From: a virus
Length of the DNA: 40,176 nt
Virus record (IMG/VR): IMGVR_UViG_3300028189_000548
Coordinates: 1-40,176 of that record
Reading direction: 5' to 3' (one strand)
The notes below the pieces were generated by a model, which ran no database searches, was not told the DNA's origin, and saw only the letters and a program-made list of their open reading frames with translations. The translations under genes and the position numbers were made by a program. This document shows, piece after piece, positions 4,065-21,435 of the stretch (position 1 is its first letter; each line of letters starts with the position of its first letter).

Positions 4065-4697
4065 CTATGGTGATAAAATATGATTATAGTTATCCAACTG
4101 ATTTGTTTTAACTACAATTGGATTACCATTTTTATCTTCGACGTACCATTTATGATCTTCAGTGCAAACAACTACTTCACCATTTTCAAGTTCAATCTCA
4201 TACACCTCTTGTTCACCCTTATCCCACAAGTGGAATGGTCTCCACTGCCATTCTTCTTTTTCAACATTCCAAGATTTAACTAAATCATTGTTTTCATCAA
4301 CATCTTTTATCGGAACTTGAATCTGTTCCCCATTCGATAATACAGTAACTAATGTATTTTCATCCAAACACTCATCAAGTACGACCACCTTTAAATCTTT
4401 AAATCCAATAGTTGATACGAATCCTTTTATTTTATTTCTAACAGAATCTACACTATTTTCATCACTCGCATTTATGTAAATATAGTCACATTCAATACTA
4501 TTTGAGAGTATTTTTGCGAGAGTTGTCTTACCGGTTCCAGCTGGACCAAATAATAGTAAGTGTGGGATGTCTCCACTTTCCAAATAAACCCTTACCTTTT
4601 CCTTTAGGTGGTCGTTTCCTATGTAAGTGTCTAATGATGTTGGCCTGTATTTCTCAACAAAAAGAGTATGTTCAGAATTTTGTTTGTTTTGTAACAT
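4065..4697 (-). CDS. Clamp loader N-fragment with 101-aa split-intein IntN (4065-4370)
   Basis: LFVEKYRP, Walker A GPAGTGKTT, INASDE, Walker B VVVLDE followed by CLDENTLV (block A) and CTEDHKW (block B TxxH). Confidence 0.92.
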   Translation of the reverse strand: MLQNKQNSEHTLFVEKYRPTSLDTYIGNDHLKEKVRVYLESGDIPHLLLFGPAGTGKTTLAKILSNSIECDYIYINASDENSVDSVRNKIKGFVSTIGFKDLKVVVLDECLDENTLVTVLSNGEQIQVPIKDVDENNDLVKSWNVEKEEWQWRPFHLWDKGEQEVYEIELENGEVVVCTEDHKWYVEDKNGNPIVVKTNQLDNYNHILSP

Positions 4698-9092: not shown

Positions 9093-10009
9093 TTAAAAAA
9101 ATCTTTCTATACTTTGTGCTTCATCTACTGGTTTACCCCAATCTAAACATTCATAAAATAGATTGAGTTTTTTAGTGAGTGCTCTATCATAGATTTTATC
9201 ATAATCCATATTATCTTCTATGAATTTCATAATCTCGGGTGGATCTTCATAACCTTTATATGCTACTACTGATAATCCTAATGAGTTATTCTTTAAATAT
9301 ACCCACCGGATTTTATCCCCATTACTTATAAATCCATATTTTTTATCTCGTTTGTAATATCGCAATAAATCATTATAACTTACTGCTGCCCTTACATGGA
9401 CTGGAATACCGTTCTTCAATACTGTAAATACTGAAGTATTTTCTTTGTCCTTTTTAATATATTTCTTAATTCCCTTTACACCGGTTGGAGAAGAAATATC
9501 ATCTAAATCTTTTAATCTCATGTTCTTCTTAAATCTGGTTATTCTATGGTCTATCTTATCCCGTGGAACACTTGCTAAAATGTCCTCTAATACATCGTTT
9601 AATAGTTTTCTAAATGCCGGTGCGAAATTACTACGTACAGTATCTAATCCCTTTACCATTGTCTTATTTACTTGAACTCCATTATCACTAATGAGTTTCA
9701 TACCATATCGTTTCTTTGTAATGAATAAACCAGACTTTGCTATAATTTCCTGTTTGATTTCAAATCGGTGTGTGTCTAAGTTACAGAATTTCTTAGCGAA
9801 ATAGTCGTATGAACCATTTAAGTATTCTTGAACTTCAGTTGCAATTTCATTTATTCGTTGAGTCATCATTACATCACTCAGGCTTTGACCTTTGAAACGG
9901 TGGTTAATGAGGTCTACAACTGATAAAAATATAGAATCAGTCAAGTGTCGACGTAGATAATTCTATCAACATCGAGATCTGGCTGCCTCCTTATTTGTTT
10001 TATTTTCAT
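9093..10009 (-). CDS. Family B DNA polymerase C-fragment, interrupted by a 5-nt insertion (9939-9943) in motif C
   Basis: ATG at 10009 gives MKIKQIRRQPDLDVDRIIYVDT-TGA; the -1 frame continues TDSIFLS...KKRY...KGLDTVRS. Removing 5 nt gives a 303-aa ORF with an intact YVDTDS. Confidence 0.85.
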
Positions 10010-10479
10010 ATTATAATTTTCCTTATATGTTCTAAAACGGTTTCTTTACTCAAATTCCAATCATTTTCCCAAATTATTATTGGGATATATCCATTATCTT
10101 CATAAAAATTTATTTTAATTTCATCATACTCCCAAATTTCATTGGCAACTTTACCCCCTCTAATAGTATGAGTCTCATTATATAACTGCGGATTCATGTG
10201 CCAATAATCACCAAAAAATTCTATAATATAATTTTCATATTTACCATCTGCCACATAACACCCAATTCGAACTTCTGGTTGGATCTCAATATTAAGTTCA
10301 CGTTCTATTTCCTTCATTACAGAAATAGATAATTTTGATTTTGAATTAAATTTAACACGTTTACTTTCAGCCTCTATTTCTGTATATCCATTATGTAACC
10401 AATACTCAATTTTAGTTGTATTATAAAGTAAATTCCAAATTTTTCTTCTATTATCATCTGTATAATCTAACTCAAAAAA
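10006..10479 (-). CDS. Vsr/DUF559-like endonuclease between the PolB halves
   Basis: IIEFFGDYWH and IIIWENDW are Vsr-like motifs. The frame is open from 10479 but the first ATG is at 10317; stop overlaps the PolB-C ATG (ATGA). Confidence 0.8.
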   Translation of the reverse strand, partial: FFELDYTDDNRRKIWNLLYNTTKIEYWLHNGYTEIEAESKRVKFNSKSKLSISVMKEIERELNIEIQPEVRIGCYVADGKYENYIIEFFGDYWHMNPQLYNETHTIRGGKVANEIWEYDEIKINFYEDNGYIPIIIWENDWNLSKETVLEHIRKIII

Positions 10480-12227
10480 TCATCGGTTTCCAGTAAATCT
10501 TTTACTTTTATTTCCATTTTTTTACCATTTCGTATTACATCAACTCTATTGTTTTCATATAACTTTCTAACTTCACCGTTTTCTAATTCAACTTCAACTG
10601 GAGTACCAATCTCACTATTATAAAAATGATTTGTTATTTTTGCAGTAAACTTAATTAATTCTTGCCCTGCCGTTGTAACTGAGGTTGCATTTTCTAAATC
10701 GTAAAATCTCCAACCCTGAAGTCCAAGAACACCGTACATACTATTAAGTAAAATTTTCTGAATATATTGTCGTCTGTTAAAGTATTCATATTTTTCGTCA
10801 TTTCCGTCGTCTGCAAATTTCTTAGCTAATTTCCTAAACTCTGATCTTGTATCAAACCACTTGGATAAAATAGTTGGTATTAAACCTGCTTTGTCTGTTT
10901 TATATAATATACCAGCACTTGAAATAGATATTTGATTATCATTAAAAAAGTCCTCTAATTCTGTATTTGTTAGTTGGCCCTTCTTCTTTCCATTTAATAT
11001 GATAGAATGTGTCTTTTTTTTCTTTGATATAAATTCTTTAGCATTCCAACCAACTACCCTTCCAAACTTAGTTTCTGGGCTGATATTCAAACTCATTATT
11101 AAATTTGGGTACATACTTGTCAGATCCAAATCTATAACCCAGTCATGTTTACCACGTTGTGGACTTTTTACGTATGCTCCTACGAACTTATTATCTGTAT
11201 ATTCACCCTTTTCTGGTTTGTTTGGTGCTACGATGTTTAATTTTTTCAAATGAGTGAGGATTGCCCCTTCTAAATATCTACTACTGAAATATATGTCCTC
11301 ATATGGAACATGACCGATATGACAAATACCACGGGCAATATCAATGAAATCTAATTTATCATCCAACTGTTTTACTATTCTAACATCATGAATGTTATAT
11401 TCCACAAACTTTCTCAAGTCGTTTTCAAATAAATCGTTTAGTGTTCCATCGTAACTTATTTTTGGTGATCCAACTTCAAATTGACCAATGGCATCTAATC
11501 TATATGATGGTCTTGACCCAAATGTAAAATCCTTATAGAGTAGTAAGTAATCTAATACACTTACACCTGCTATTTTATATCGTTTCGTGTATTTACTATA
11601 CATCACCTTTGATATTGGTGATAGATTGTCAGCAACACTTTGACCGAGAACTTTAATTGTTCTGTTGTATAAATATGGAATATCAAACCCATCTACGTTC
11701 CAACCTGTAATAATAGTTGGTCGTAGCTCTAAATACTTTTGGTAAAATCTTTGTAATAATTCATACTCTGTTTGGTGACTCTCAACTACGACATTCTTTC
11801 CAAATCCTGTTGTGTCTAGTGTCTTATGTTCGTCTAATGCTAAGCACGTATAAACATTACTGATGTTATCCCACATTGCAATAGATGTGATTTTATTTGG
11901 ACCAATCATTGGGTCTGGAAAGCCCTCTGTTACTTCACACTCAATGTCAAATATGAATATTTTATGTCCAGTAGATGGTTCTTCACTTTGACCGTACATA
12001 TCTATTAATGTCCGCATTTCAGGATTTACATCACTTTCAAATAATCCTTCTGCAGTCTTATCCCATCTGTATATCTTCTTTAATTTATCACCGTATAAGG
12101 ATGCAAAAGTTCCATAGTTGTCTCTAACATAAGCATACTTTTTGTATTGTGTTGAAACATATCCGGCTTTGTCGTCCCAAATGTGGACCTTTCCCTTGAA
12201 TGGTTCTACGAATATATTTTGGTAAAT
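10467..12227 (-). CDS. Family B DNA polymerase N-fragment (exonuclease, motif A, motif B) with intein-like tail; probable ATT start
   Basis: ExoI FDIEC, ExoII WNVDGFDIPY, ExoIII YNIHD, motif A DLTSMYP, motif B KILLNSMYG. The frame is open for 70 codons upstream of the listed ATG (12017), to ATT at 12227 with GAGG 7 nt upstream. Confidence 0.9.
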   Translation of the reverse strand: MYQNIFVEPFKGKVHIWDDKAGYVSTQYKKYAYVRDNYGTFASLYGDKLKKIYRWDKTAEGLFESDVNPEMRTLIDMYGQSEEPSTGHKIFIFDIECEVTEGFPDPMIGPNKITSIAMWDNISNVYTCLALDEHKTLDTTGFGKNVVVESHQTEYELLQRFYQKYLELRPTIITGWNVDGFDIPYLYNRTIKVLGQSVADNLSPISKVMYSKYTKRYKIAGVSVLDYLLLYKDFTFGSRPSYRLDAIGQFEVGSPKISYDGTLNDLFENDLRKFVEYNIHDVRIVKQLDDKLDFIDIARGICHIGHVPYEDIYFSSRYLEGAILTHLKKLNIVAPNKPEKGEYTDNKFVGAYVKSPQRGKHDWVIDLDLTSMYPNLIMSLNISPETKFGRVVGWNAKEFISKKKKTHSIILNGKKKGQLTNTELEDFFNDNQISISSAGILYKTDKAGLIPTILSKWFDTRSEFRKLAKKFADDGNDEKYEYFNRRQYIQKILLNSMYGVLGLQGWRFYDLENATSVTTAGQELIKFTAKITNHFYNSEIGTPVEVELENGEVRKLYENNRVDVIRNGKKMEIKVKDLLETDDFLS

Positions 12228-16319: not shown

Positions 16320-16569
16320 TTACAAATTCCTTACATTTTTTAACTATATATTTTTCATCCATCTTATAGAAAACATCATCTACTCGTAAAATTTTATACC
16401 CCTTACTTTCTAAAATAATATCTCGTTGAATATCAAGATTTCCATCGTGCCAATATTCACAATCAAATTCAATTATTGAATTTCCACACTTGAAATCTGG
16501 CATTATAATTTTATTTGGATAATCATTTTCGTGATTTACAAAAAGTTTCTTTATTTCTTTGTAAATAAT
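16306..16569 (-). CDS. Short Vsr/DUF559-like endonuclease between the helicase halves
   Basis: PDF...IIEFDCEYWH...D-x-x-R-D-x-x-L-x-x-x-G-Y-K-I-L-R; frame open from ATT at 16569, first ATG at 16503. Confidence 0.72.
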   Translation of the reverse strand: MIYKEIKKLFVNHENDYPNKIIMPDFKCGNSIIEFDCEYWHDGNLDIQRDIILESKGYKILRVDDVFYKMDEKYIVKKCKEFVNENA

Positions 16570-19257: not shown

Positions 19258-20820
19258 TAAAAATATTCGTGTTCTACTAAATTATGAGGATTTTTTGCAT
19301 TCTCGATTCTAGCTTCCATTATTTTAAAATACTCTTTTTCTCTTTCGATAAGTATGTAGTTCCTTTCTGAAAACACACAAGCAATTCCTGTTGTTCCACT
19401 TCCTGAAAATGGATCTAATACCACATCACCTTTACGACTACCCAATGTAACTAAATAACTCATTAAGGTTACGGGTTTTACTGTTGGATGAATATTATTT
19501 TCCAATCCACTATTCTTTTCAGATTTACTCGCCTTTGGAACAATTAAAAATGGAAATGTCCGTTGTATTTCTTCTGGTAATTTCTTAACCCTATCTTCCC
19601 ACCAAGCATCTAAACTATAATATCTACTAAAATCTTTTTCTAATATATCATCACTTATTAATAGGTTTGCTGCAAATCTACCGAGTGGTGATGCTTCTGC
19701 TGTATCATTATTCTCTGACTTAAATCCACTTGTCTTAAATACATTATCGTCTGCTCGTGGTTGTCGTTTAGTGGTTTTTGGTTTTTGATAAGTTTCACTC
19801 GGGTTTAATTGTTTCATATCACCACTAAGAAATGTCTTTCCACCTTCATTTACTTTACCGATTGTTTTTGCACCACCGAATGACTGTTGTTTTTCTACAT
19901 ATTTATCGTAATCACTTTTAGATTTTCGTGATGGTTGATTTCCCCTTGATAATCCTTCTGCGTCAGTATCAAAGTTTTTCTGACTACCTACATTATCCTT
20001 ATTGTATTGTTCTAAATCTTTACTAACAGGTTTCTTAAATCCATAATTATATGTTCCACCATATTCTTTAGCATATACCGAACCTTCTTCTATGGAACTT
20101 CTTTCTGTAAATCCTTTTCTATCACTTTCATATTGTTCTGTATCACTCATTCCTGCAAATGGTATTCTACAATTATCCAACCAAGTGATCCCTTTTTGAT
20201 TATCAAGTGCTTGGTCTAAATAACCTTTCTTCTCTAATGGTTTCATTGCCACAATCACGACTTCTACTGCTGGTTTTGGTTGATATCCTGCATAACTTCC
20301 ATCAAGTTTCTTGGCTTCGTCTGACTTTGGTTCTGTTATATAACTTTCAACTCTTGGTCTATTACTTACAGTTTCACCACTCCAACCATCTTGACCTGTG
20401 TTTTCATCTCGGCGGATATCCGCATAAGTTCCTTTCTTTTTACCAATTACTTTCCGTTCCTTACCTAATCTTTTATCAACTGCCTTACCAATATTCATAG
20501 CCTTTGGAAAACCTGTAGCGTATGTCCAATAGATAGGTGAGAAACCAATTTGAAATCCAACTTCCTCTAACATTTGAACCATTCTGTATTGAACGTCACT
20601 TCTTGGAGCACTCATTACGAATGCAAATCCACCTGGTTTCAATACTCTCAATGACTCTTCAAATATCTCTTTAGGTGGCAACGTCTTATCCCAATCTTTA
20701 CCCATAAATCCATAGCTTAATTCAACCATACGGTGGATCTGTACATAACAAATCTACCGTATGATCGGCAATCTCCTTTAATTTTTCTATACTATCTCCA
20801 AGTAATAATTTACTTTCCAT
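19257..20820 (-). CDS. N4/N6 (beta-class) DNA methyltransferase interrupted by a 10-nt insertion (20715-20724) after DPPYG
   Basis: ATG at 20820 gives MESKLLLGDSIEKL...CTDPPYG-TGA; the +1 frame continues YGFMGKDWD...RVLKPGG...HPTVKP...VLDPFSGSGTT. Removing 10 nt gives a 517-aa ORF. Confidence 0.85.
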
Positions 20821-21435
20821 AATATTCATGTCCCCCTGGAACTTTGACTTTTTCCAATTATCATTTTCCATCATTTTTTTGATGGATTTTTTACTCATTA
20901 TTCTCCAACCATCCATATTGAAAGTTTTTATCACTTCTCCCAATAATTTCATCTGGTCTATACTAAATGCATGACCACGAGTTCTATTACATAACTCACA
21001 ACACACAACACAATTTTCTTTAATATGCCCTACATTATTATCTATTCTATCAAGTCCAAGAGTTTCTCTTTCACCACTTCCACAATAATAACACATTAAA
21101 TCATTTTCCATAATCTCACACATTTCATCAAATGTAAAATCTACTTCATCTCTTTGCCTATAACTGTTATATTTCCGTTTCCATATGTGTTTATATTTTG
21201 ACCAACCAGTACCTTCTCTCATCGGTGCAGTTAATCCTAATGATTGACCTTTATTTCTACATTCAACACTACAGAACTTTTTCCCATCGGCATGAGATGG
21301 ATATACTTTACTTACTTTACCACATAATTTGCACTCTACTTCTACTCTACTATCTTTCCCTTTATTCCACCCAGATCCCTTTTTTAGATTTTCCCAACTT
21401 GAGTTATATGTCTTTCTTTTATCTTCATTTCCCAT
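20722..21435 (-). CDS. His-Me/HNH-type endonuclease fused in frame to the methyltransferase N-terminal 32 aa
   Basis: CYYCG...GLDRIDN..GH...NCVVCCELCN motif; N-terminal CxxC...CSxxC zinc finger. Confidence 0.8.
   Translation of the reverse strand: MGNEDKRKTYNSSWENLKKGSGWNKGKDSRVEVECKLCGKVSKVYPSHADGKKFCSVECRNKGQSLGLTAPMREGTGWSKYKHIWKRKYNSYRQRDEVDFTFDEMCEIMENDLMCYYCGSGERETLGLDRIDNNVGHIKENCVVCCELCNRTRGHAFSIDQMKLLGEVIKTFNMDGWRIMSKKSIKKMMENDNWKKSKFQGDMNIMESKLLLGDSIEKLKEIADHTVDLLCTDPPYG

Follow-up and report, generated by a model that had tools for sequence, protein, structure and literature searches.

The closest described counterparts of the locus analyzed here are the fractured genes of Dassa et al. 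(2009, PMC2677866). According to the accessible part of that report, these are replication genes of marine phage origin that are divided in two, with an endonuclease of the Vsr-like class encoded between the pieces that carry the N-terminal and the C-terminal part of a split intein (IntN and IntC). We examined a 40,176-nucleotide (nt) stretch of viral DNA (IMG/VR record IMGVR_UViG_3300028189_000548, positions 1 to 40,176; hereafter the window), in which a gene for a family B DNA polymerase (PolB) shows the same layout. An upstream fragment (PolB-N) ends in a C-terminal tail, a short Vsr-like open reading frame (ORF) follows, and a short leader opens the downstream polymerase piece. The intein parts are vestigial. 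Unlike the halves in the fractured genes of Dassa et al., those of the window comprise only about 44 and 10 residues, contain no catalytic block and allow no ligation. The accessible part of that report lists eight types of enzyme, and PolB is not one of them.

Three other systems share part of this architecture. In the Aeromonas T4-like phages, the cysteine-less split intein of Aes123 PolB1 (PMC11923092; JN377899) also resides in a PolB that is distributed over three genes, with a VSR endonuclease between the intein halves. This intein (9hth) gave the best sequence match in PDB and also matches the window tail structurally; it is inserted at YIDTD|S, one residue from a second break in the window gene. 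In contrast to the window, where the cassette is dead and lies 11 codons upstream, the Aes123 intein is complete and active (120 + 39 amino acids, aa) and ligates its chains. The second system is the essential enzyme NrdA of Aeh1, which is split into NrdA-a and NrdA-b by the mobile endonuclease mobE and requires short C- and N-terminal tails of element origin for activity without splicing (Crona et al. 2011, PMC3045599). These mobE-derived tails are the closest functional precedent. They have no recognized fold or ancestry and come from one phage, unlike the tails described here, which represent half of a HINT domain and occur in three polymerase families. The third system is gene 60 of T4 behind mobA (bioRxiv 10.1101/2022.08.31.505936; PMC2988022), in which an endonuclease gene is likewise followed by a short start-proximal frame. 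The insert in gene 60 also sits in the most conserved catalytic motif, with a stop codon after the take-off codon, a matching landing codon, an upstream stem-loop and a basic nascent peptide. By analogy, the second break in the window gene, in motif C, would be a miniature of this arrangement. In contrast to the 50-nt bypass in T4, the gap is 5 or 7 nt, bypassing is a prediction, and the junction of some lineages instead contains a start codon.

The insertion site of the cassette is a loop on the surface of the PolB palm, and 11 codons separate it from motif C. All features of this gene are on the minus strand. Polymerase homology, as judged by Pfam and PHROG, stops at ..EIGT, and the frame continues through a 44-aa tail (10601..10470) to the stop codon at 10467. 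By BLASTP this tail aligns with the second half of the IntN ORF of the window's own clamp-loader intein (4697..4065; 16 of 43 residues identical, E 1e-4) and also with the pseudo-symmetric first half of the same fragment (E 2e-5). A hidden Markov model of the tail run against all open frames of the window retrieved only this clamp-loader ORF besides PolB-N itself (E 6e-6). Used alone as a query, the tail retrieved a relative with 86% identity (P0002); queries with the C-terminal polymerase fragment (PolB-C) retrieved more distant split PolB genes. We built a profile (A1) from an alignment of six tails that are 40–86% identical to the window tail and searched 1.84 billion (1.84e9) representative proteins with hmmsearch. 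Of 38 matches at E <= 1e-3, five were repeat proteins that score by accumulation and were dropped, and the others match at their extreme C-terminus. The matches include four genuine IntN fragments equipped with Cys1, block A and TxxH (P0129, P0130, P0145 and P0158), with library-wide E-values between 1.8e-6 and 7e-4. Profile–profile alignment with hhalign places tail residues 2–44 on IntN residues 57–100 (Prob 97.9, E 4e-13), with YENN over TxxH. Two of the live inteins matched by the profile are found in fractured PolA genes (L138 and L139), and their IntC fragments begin with MKIKKI, as does the leader of the PolB piece (10009..9980, 10 codons; 7 of 11 residues identical by BLASTP). This MKIK leader is kept in at least nine PolB lineages.

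Structure prediction leads to the same family. The tail modelled alone with AlphaFold2 forms five strands with a predicted local distance difference test (pLDDT) score of 86.7. All 16 VIA-align matches at Z >= 2 are inteins or hedgehog proteins, that is, HINT domains, with root-mean-square deviations of 1.9–2.4 over 43–44 residues; the Z-scores of 2.0–5.4 are under the decisive level of the tool, and only part of one HINT unit was modelled. Inteins also fill the top ranks of a Foldseek search, yet every E-value is above 0.6, which is non-significant for so short a query. The structural matches fall on residues ~76–119, directly before the endonuclease or split site. Of the second HINT unit, the tail contains the globular part together with beta3 and beta4, and YENN replaces TxxH. 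From the sequence comparisons we regard it as established that the tail is a homologue of the C-terminal half of IntN from live split inteins, and as strongly supported that the leader corresponds to the first strand (beta6) of IntC.

Unlike their live relatives, neither piece retains splicing chemistry. Block A with its N-terminal Cys or Ser nucleophile is not present: the tail directly follows ..EIGT, its first residue is Pro in the window and Arg, Ser, Lys, Gly or Tyr in relatives, and ~55 residues of the first HINT unit are missing. The His position of TxxH is occupied by Asn, Thr, Gln, Ser or Trp in the A1 alignment. Downstream, the polymerase resumes after 8–10 leader residues, leaving no block F or G, no His-Asn, no terminal Asn and no Ser, Thr or Cys at position +1. 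The live IntC fragments in L138 and L139 differ in this respect. Since all splicing residues are gone, the cassette cannot splice and the two chains are never ligated; the loss of splicing chemistry is established.

These results confirm the observations, and partly support the interpretation, of a reading that had been made from the letters of the window alone (the original prediction). It had aligned the tail with the second half of the clamp-loader IntN, which the BLASTP match reproduces, and had recognized the lack of Cys1 and block A and the replacement of TxxH by YENN, on which the profile–profile alignment agrees. The resemblance that it saw between the MKIK start and the first IntC strand recurs in the IntC fragments of L138 and L139, and translation agrees that the downstream piece has no His-Asn or block F and returns to polymerase sequence before motif C. 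The check proposed for a HINT-like fold gave a model of the tail that superposes on HINT structures, at Z-scores below the decisive level. The broader statement that the parts for association were kept while the chemistry of splicing was lost is consistent with homology to the C-terminal half of IntN and the IntC strand and with the absence of all catalytic blocks.

How might such remnants work? In gp41-1 and Npu DnaE, a charge zipper forms between beta6 of IntC and the antiparallel beta3 of IntN; this contact is considered the starting point of fragment association, and the capture-and-collapse model is cited in this context (bioRxiv 10.1101/546465). By mapping the alignment to IntN 57–100 on the description of gp41-1, we infer that the tail begins with the equivalent of beta3. 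Hence the parts that remain would comprise the docking pair and, from the second HINT unit, its globular part. Net charges, counted by hand, range from -2 to -5 for the first tail strand and from +2 to +5 for the leader in nearly all pairs, in line with the zipper of gp41-1 and Npu DnaE. The cassette derives from a split intein with a homing endonuclease in which the intein was cut down to one half-unit: PolB-N retains the last 44 residues of IntN, and the downstream piece nothing but the first IntC strand. We propose that the tail's first strand, which is acidic, pairs with the basic leader as an antiparallel beta zipper in the manner of beta3 and beta6. This would complete a small half-HINT module by which PolB-N keeps hold of the downstream chain, and so let the motif C hairpin insert into the palm. 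Because the docking pair is kept and no tail is truncated, a non-covalent clasp between the PolB chains is the best reading of tail and leader, and we judge it reasonably probable, although binding itself is deduced. A complex prediction for the tail of L111 (48 aa) with the first 30 residues of its cognate downstream chain, P0088, run without controls, gave ipSAE values of 0.20 and 0.16 and counts neither way.

The tail is not confined to the window and recurs in many lineages of marine phages. All nine PolB tails that were read from their loci follow ..ELG and comprise exactly 44 aa, with a 6-aa C-terminal extension in L122; none is shorter. About ten more PolB N-fragments match the tail profile over 40–44 positions. 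Eight alignment columns are invariant, and the fold-defining Gly and hydrophobic positions are kept at 40% identity. Similar C-termini occur on N-fragments of PolA (P0127, P0128, P0141, P0142, P0124, P0131, P0147 and P0149) and DnaE (P0139, P0153 and P0155), and P0156 is a PolB N-fragment with a dead tail at another site, after motif C. The module is therefore not bound to one insertion point. In L083/L084, L114, L120, L122 and L127 the endonuclease is reduced to a stub, and tail and leader are kept. L111 retains a 254-aa endonuclease and an intact motif C, and hence represents a clean two-chain form. The 80 nearest PolB relatives in IMG/VR, which served as controls, are all unbroken and have neither tail nor leader. 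A separate observation concerns P0129 (L139, 381–1136), a PolA N-fragment with a live IntN. Its residues ~67–105, in frame and not split, also show a weak similarity to the tail (domain E 0.18 in a small search), and may represent the half module in a cis form.

Ratios of nonsynonymous to synonymous substitution rates (dN/dS) of 0.22–0.29 indicate that the tails are under purifying selection. Together with the invariant tail length, the persistence of the tail after loss of the endonuclease and the opposite charges of tail and leader, this lends the clasp indirect support. Between the window and L083, synonymous divergence (dS) is 0.27 in the tail and 0.09 in the frame that starts with the leader, compared to 1.02 and 0.70 in the flanks. 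In L114 the tail is 84% identical to that of the window, but PolB-C only 57%. These contrasts show horizontal spread of a mobile cassette, as homing predicts.

The original prediction omitted a second break in the gene. The frame that opens with the leader (mid frame, 10009..9941) has 22 codons; its translation contains the leader and a polymerase strand up to YVDT and ends at TGA 9943..9941, inside motif C (YxDTDS). A 5-nt insert, TGACT (9943..9939), separates Thr from Asp in this motif and places PolB-C (9944..9093; the rest of the palm and the thumb) in a different frame from the mid frame. PolB-C is opened by TTG 9944, which overlaps the mid-frame stop. The junction reads ACT TGA CT GAT: the Thr codon ACT (9946..9944) is followed by TGA and by a second ACT (9941..9939), with the overlapping TTG at 9944..9942, and ACT would serve as both take-off and landing codon. 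Deletion of the five nucleotides (9943..9939) gives a perfect YxDTDS. All family B polymerase motifs and the exonuclease domain are thus present, yet spread over three frames, with motif C interrupted. Consequently, the description of the cassette as an intein-derived dimerization module for a two-chain polymerase holds, by homology, for its intein origin, and is incomplete as to the chains, since the second break lies inside motif C. The enzyme consists either of three chains or of two chains made with a translational hop.

The mid-frame arrangement recurs in independent assemblies and in diverged lineages, and the insert of the window is identical in 14 marine DNA runs from 2012 to 2018. An exact 16-mer of the junction found 23 loci in IMG/VR, all unrelated; relatives with the insert were located there with a degenerate pattern. 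Inserts of 5 or 7 nt with varied sequence are found between Thr and Asp of motif C in 11 lineages; besides the window (site 9936–9975), they were recorded in L083, L114, L115, L118, L120, L122, L125, L127, L130, L131 and L137. In 11 of 11, a stop codon directly follows the Thr codon, and two or more positions of the latter are shared by the codon that precedes the resuming Asp; this preceding codon itself encodes Thr in seven of the eight lineages with five nucleotides. The 44 nt up to the Thr codon fold as a hairpin of 12–14 bp with compensatory changes between lineages. In the window this hairpin (9975..9948) contains the IYVD codons in its 3' arm and ends right before the Thr codon. Its minimum free energy is -10.9 kcal/mol, within the range of other broken genes (-9 to -22 kcal/mol), whereas the 80 unbroken relatives average -4.1 kcal/mol. 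At the sequence level the locus therefore combines the features of gene 60-type bypassing: a stop after the take-off codon, a matching landing codon and a 5' stem-loop. In L120, L122 and L131, no start codon is available from which a chain of its own could be made that includes the catalytic Asp; in L114 and L115, an ATG is present at the motif C junction. The insert is probably read by a short ribosomal hop at the Thr codon, and the downstream chain would then be one protein composed of leader, motif C and thumb. The two breaks also occur separately, since L137 has the insert without the tail cassette and L111 the cassette without the insert. The Aes123 intein, inserted one residue from this break, shows that elements of this type target motif C DNA, which the insert may protect against endonuclease cleavage.

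Another micro-insert was observed elsewhere in the window (20700–20760, minus strand). Here, an HNH endonuclease ORF (21435..20722) runs in frame into the N-terminus of a methyltransferase, which ends with DPPYG and a TGA; GGT and GGA flank a gap of 13 nt, and the part with the DWD motif continues in the next frame from 20729.

Several observations weigh against the clasp. Pfam HINT models returned no HINT family for the window tail and the six tails at E-values up to 10, and the best match in a sequence profile search of PDB, the Aes123 PolB1 intein, was non-significant (E 0.17). The structural Z-scores are modest (<= 5.4) because the piece is short. Compared to the polymerase body, the dN/dS of the tail is five times higher (0.29 vs 0.055 between the window and L083). 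Split PolB enzymes without tails are known to assemble, as cited in PMC2677866, so that a clasp may be dispensable. Finally, an internal AGGAGG and the endonuclease stop, which it overlaps, constrain part of the leader DNA, and the leader could instead, or also, be a nascent-peptide signal for the hop. In the main rival explanation, tail and leader would be the neutral relic of a decayed split intein, tolerated on a surface loop and without a role in assembly, and the polymerase pieces would associate through their own large palm interface. The lost catalytic blocks and an endonuclease that is truncated in the window and deleted in relatives do indicate a decaying element, and both the elevated dN/dS and the tail-less enzymes would fit. 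We nevertheless consider this explanation unlikely. Although a single nonsense mutation after ..ELG would suffice to drop the tail, all nine tails read from loci have at least 44 aa; the acidic/basic pattern persists along with the Gly and hydrophobic positions at 40% identity, and dN/dS stays well below 1. It is more doubtful still that the pieces were retained for translation, with the basic leader as nascent-peptide signal, AGGAGG as pausing signal and the tail as an aid to expression or solubility of PolB-N. The leader does precede the Thr codon by 14–21 residues, similar to the spacing of the nascent signal in gene 60, and stop, matching codon and hairpin are all in place. However, L111 combines the same leader and tail with an intact motif C, live IntC fragments bear the same leader, in L137 motif C is broken although tail and leader are both missing, and the conservation of the tail would be left unexplained.

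Two further alternatives to the clasp deny that the cassette is a dead intein. The cassette might still splice by unconventional chemistry, or the insert might be a group I intron that is excised from the RNA. The window does contain several live split inteins, and endonucleases of this kind also reside in group I introns (PMC2677866). Given that the nucleophile at tail residue 1, the first HINT unit, blocks F and G, the Asn and the +1 residue are all missing, we find this very improbable. An Rfam scan at the gathering threshold and at E-values up to 5 detected no group I intron, and in RNA-library contigs from two studies the region is unspliced and unchanged, without joints and without an indel at the 5-nt insert. 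Alternatively, insertion of the endonuclease could have duplicated the polymerase's own motif C region, and the tail would be the degenerate copy; in a BLAST alignment of PolB-N with phage JS98 gp43, the tail is indeed included and is placed on the motif C region of the latter. This extension consists of scattered identities only, with ~11% identity to the window's own motif C region by eye. In view of the significant library-wide intein matches and the predicted HINT fold, we rejected this candidate as scarcely credible.

The PolB-N body (12227..10602) contains the exonuclease and motifs A and B and matches DNA_pol_B_exo1 and DNA_pol_B in Pfam and positions 101–569 of PHROG 262. PolB-N as a whole (586 aa) appears to start at ATT 12227 rather than at ATG 12017: the 70 residues 5' of this ATG are in frame and 92% identical to P0002, which has ATG at the position of the ATT, and a Shine–Dalgarno sequence (AGAGG) lies 7 nt upstream of the ATT. 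PolB-C (283 residues) matches positions 261–443 of Pfam DNA_pol_B and 579–850 of PHROG 262. At the end of PolB-N (10467–10482) there is a T_TTT_TTG heptamer at which a -1 slip would enter the endonuclease frame, which runs for 54 codons without a start. We rejected this slip signal and treat it as a coincidence because the T-run follows from Asp-Phe-Leu codons and is missing in L111. The arrangement probably reflects such a coincidence or a truncated endonuclease.

The Vsr-like homing-endonuclease ORF (10317..10006) encodes 103 aa from its ATG, and its stop overlaps the start codon of the leader (ATGA). The product matches positions 257–344 of the 353 in PHROG 22677 (E 2e-12) and by BLASTP (E 5e-12) covers only the C-terminal ~130 aa of the 353-aa Aes123 VSR endonuclease. 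The core is present; the full-length kind has ~350 aa with an N-terminal DNA-binding region. The frame is open back to 10479 without a start codon. This ORF is missing in the close relative L083/L084, where what remains belongs to another endonuclease. In L083 (6759–6790), L114 (3904–3937), L115 (3836–3943) and L120, the spacer from tail to leader contains the last codons of that other enzyme, an EDxHD-like, 254-aa form found in L111 and L118. In the window, the Vsr-like ORF has therefore replaced it at this site. Another short Vsr-like ORF (~80 aa, core only; 16320–16550, minus strand) lies between IntN and IntC of the split gp41 helicase, which also has a contiguous intein upstream. Live split inteins are present in the clamp loader, NrdJ and gp41 of the window.

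In the literature that could be searched, a dead half of a split intein has, to our knowledge, not been described from nature. As a whole, the findings tentatively suggest a possible family of domesticated half split inteins in marine phages, each consisting of a 44-residue IntN remnant and an 8–10-residue IntC strand. This family would move with a homing endonuclease and break PolB, PolA and DnaE, yet keep them working by non-covalent assembly through a beta zipper; in PolB, it would be coupled to a miniature, gene-60-like hop over a 5–7-nt insert that may shield motif C from cleavage. The many natural variants of this motif C micro-insert offer examples of very short bypassing that can be compared with the single well-studied case of T4 gene 60. 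The cassette also links two phenomena that have hitherto been considered separately, fractured genes with live split inteins and interaction tails derived from endonucleases. If our reading is true, the docking half of a split intein would be reused as an assembly tag after its chemistry dies. Such a tag would be a natural isolate of the minimal capture module of the capture-and-collapse model, and a small orthogonal non-covalent pairing tag of interest to protein engineers. For the selfish element itself, it would constitute a third way, beside RNA splicing and protein splicing, to neutralize its own insertion.

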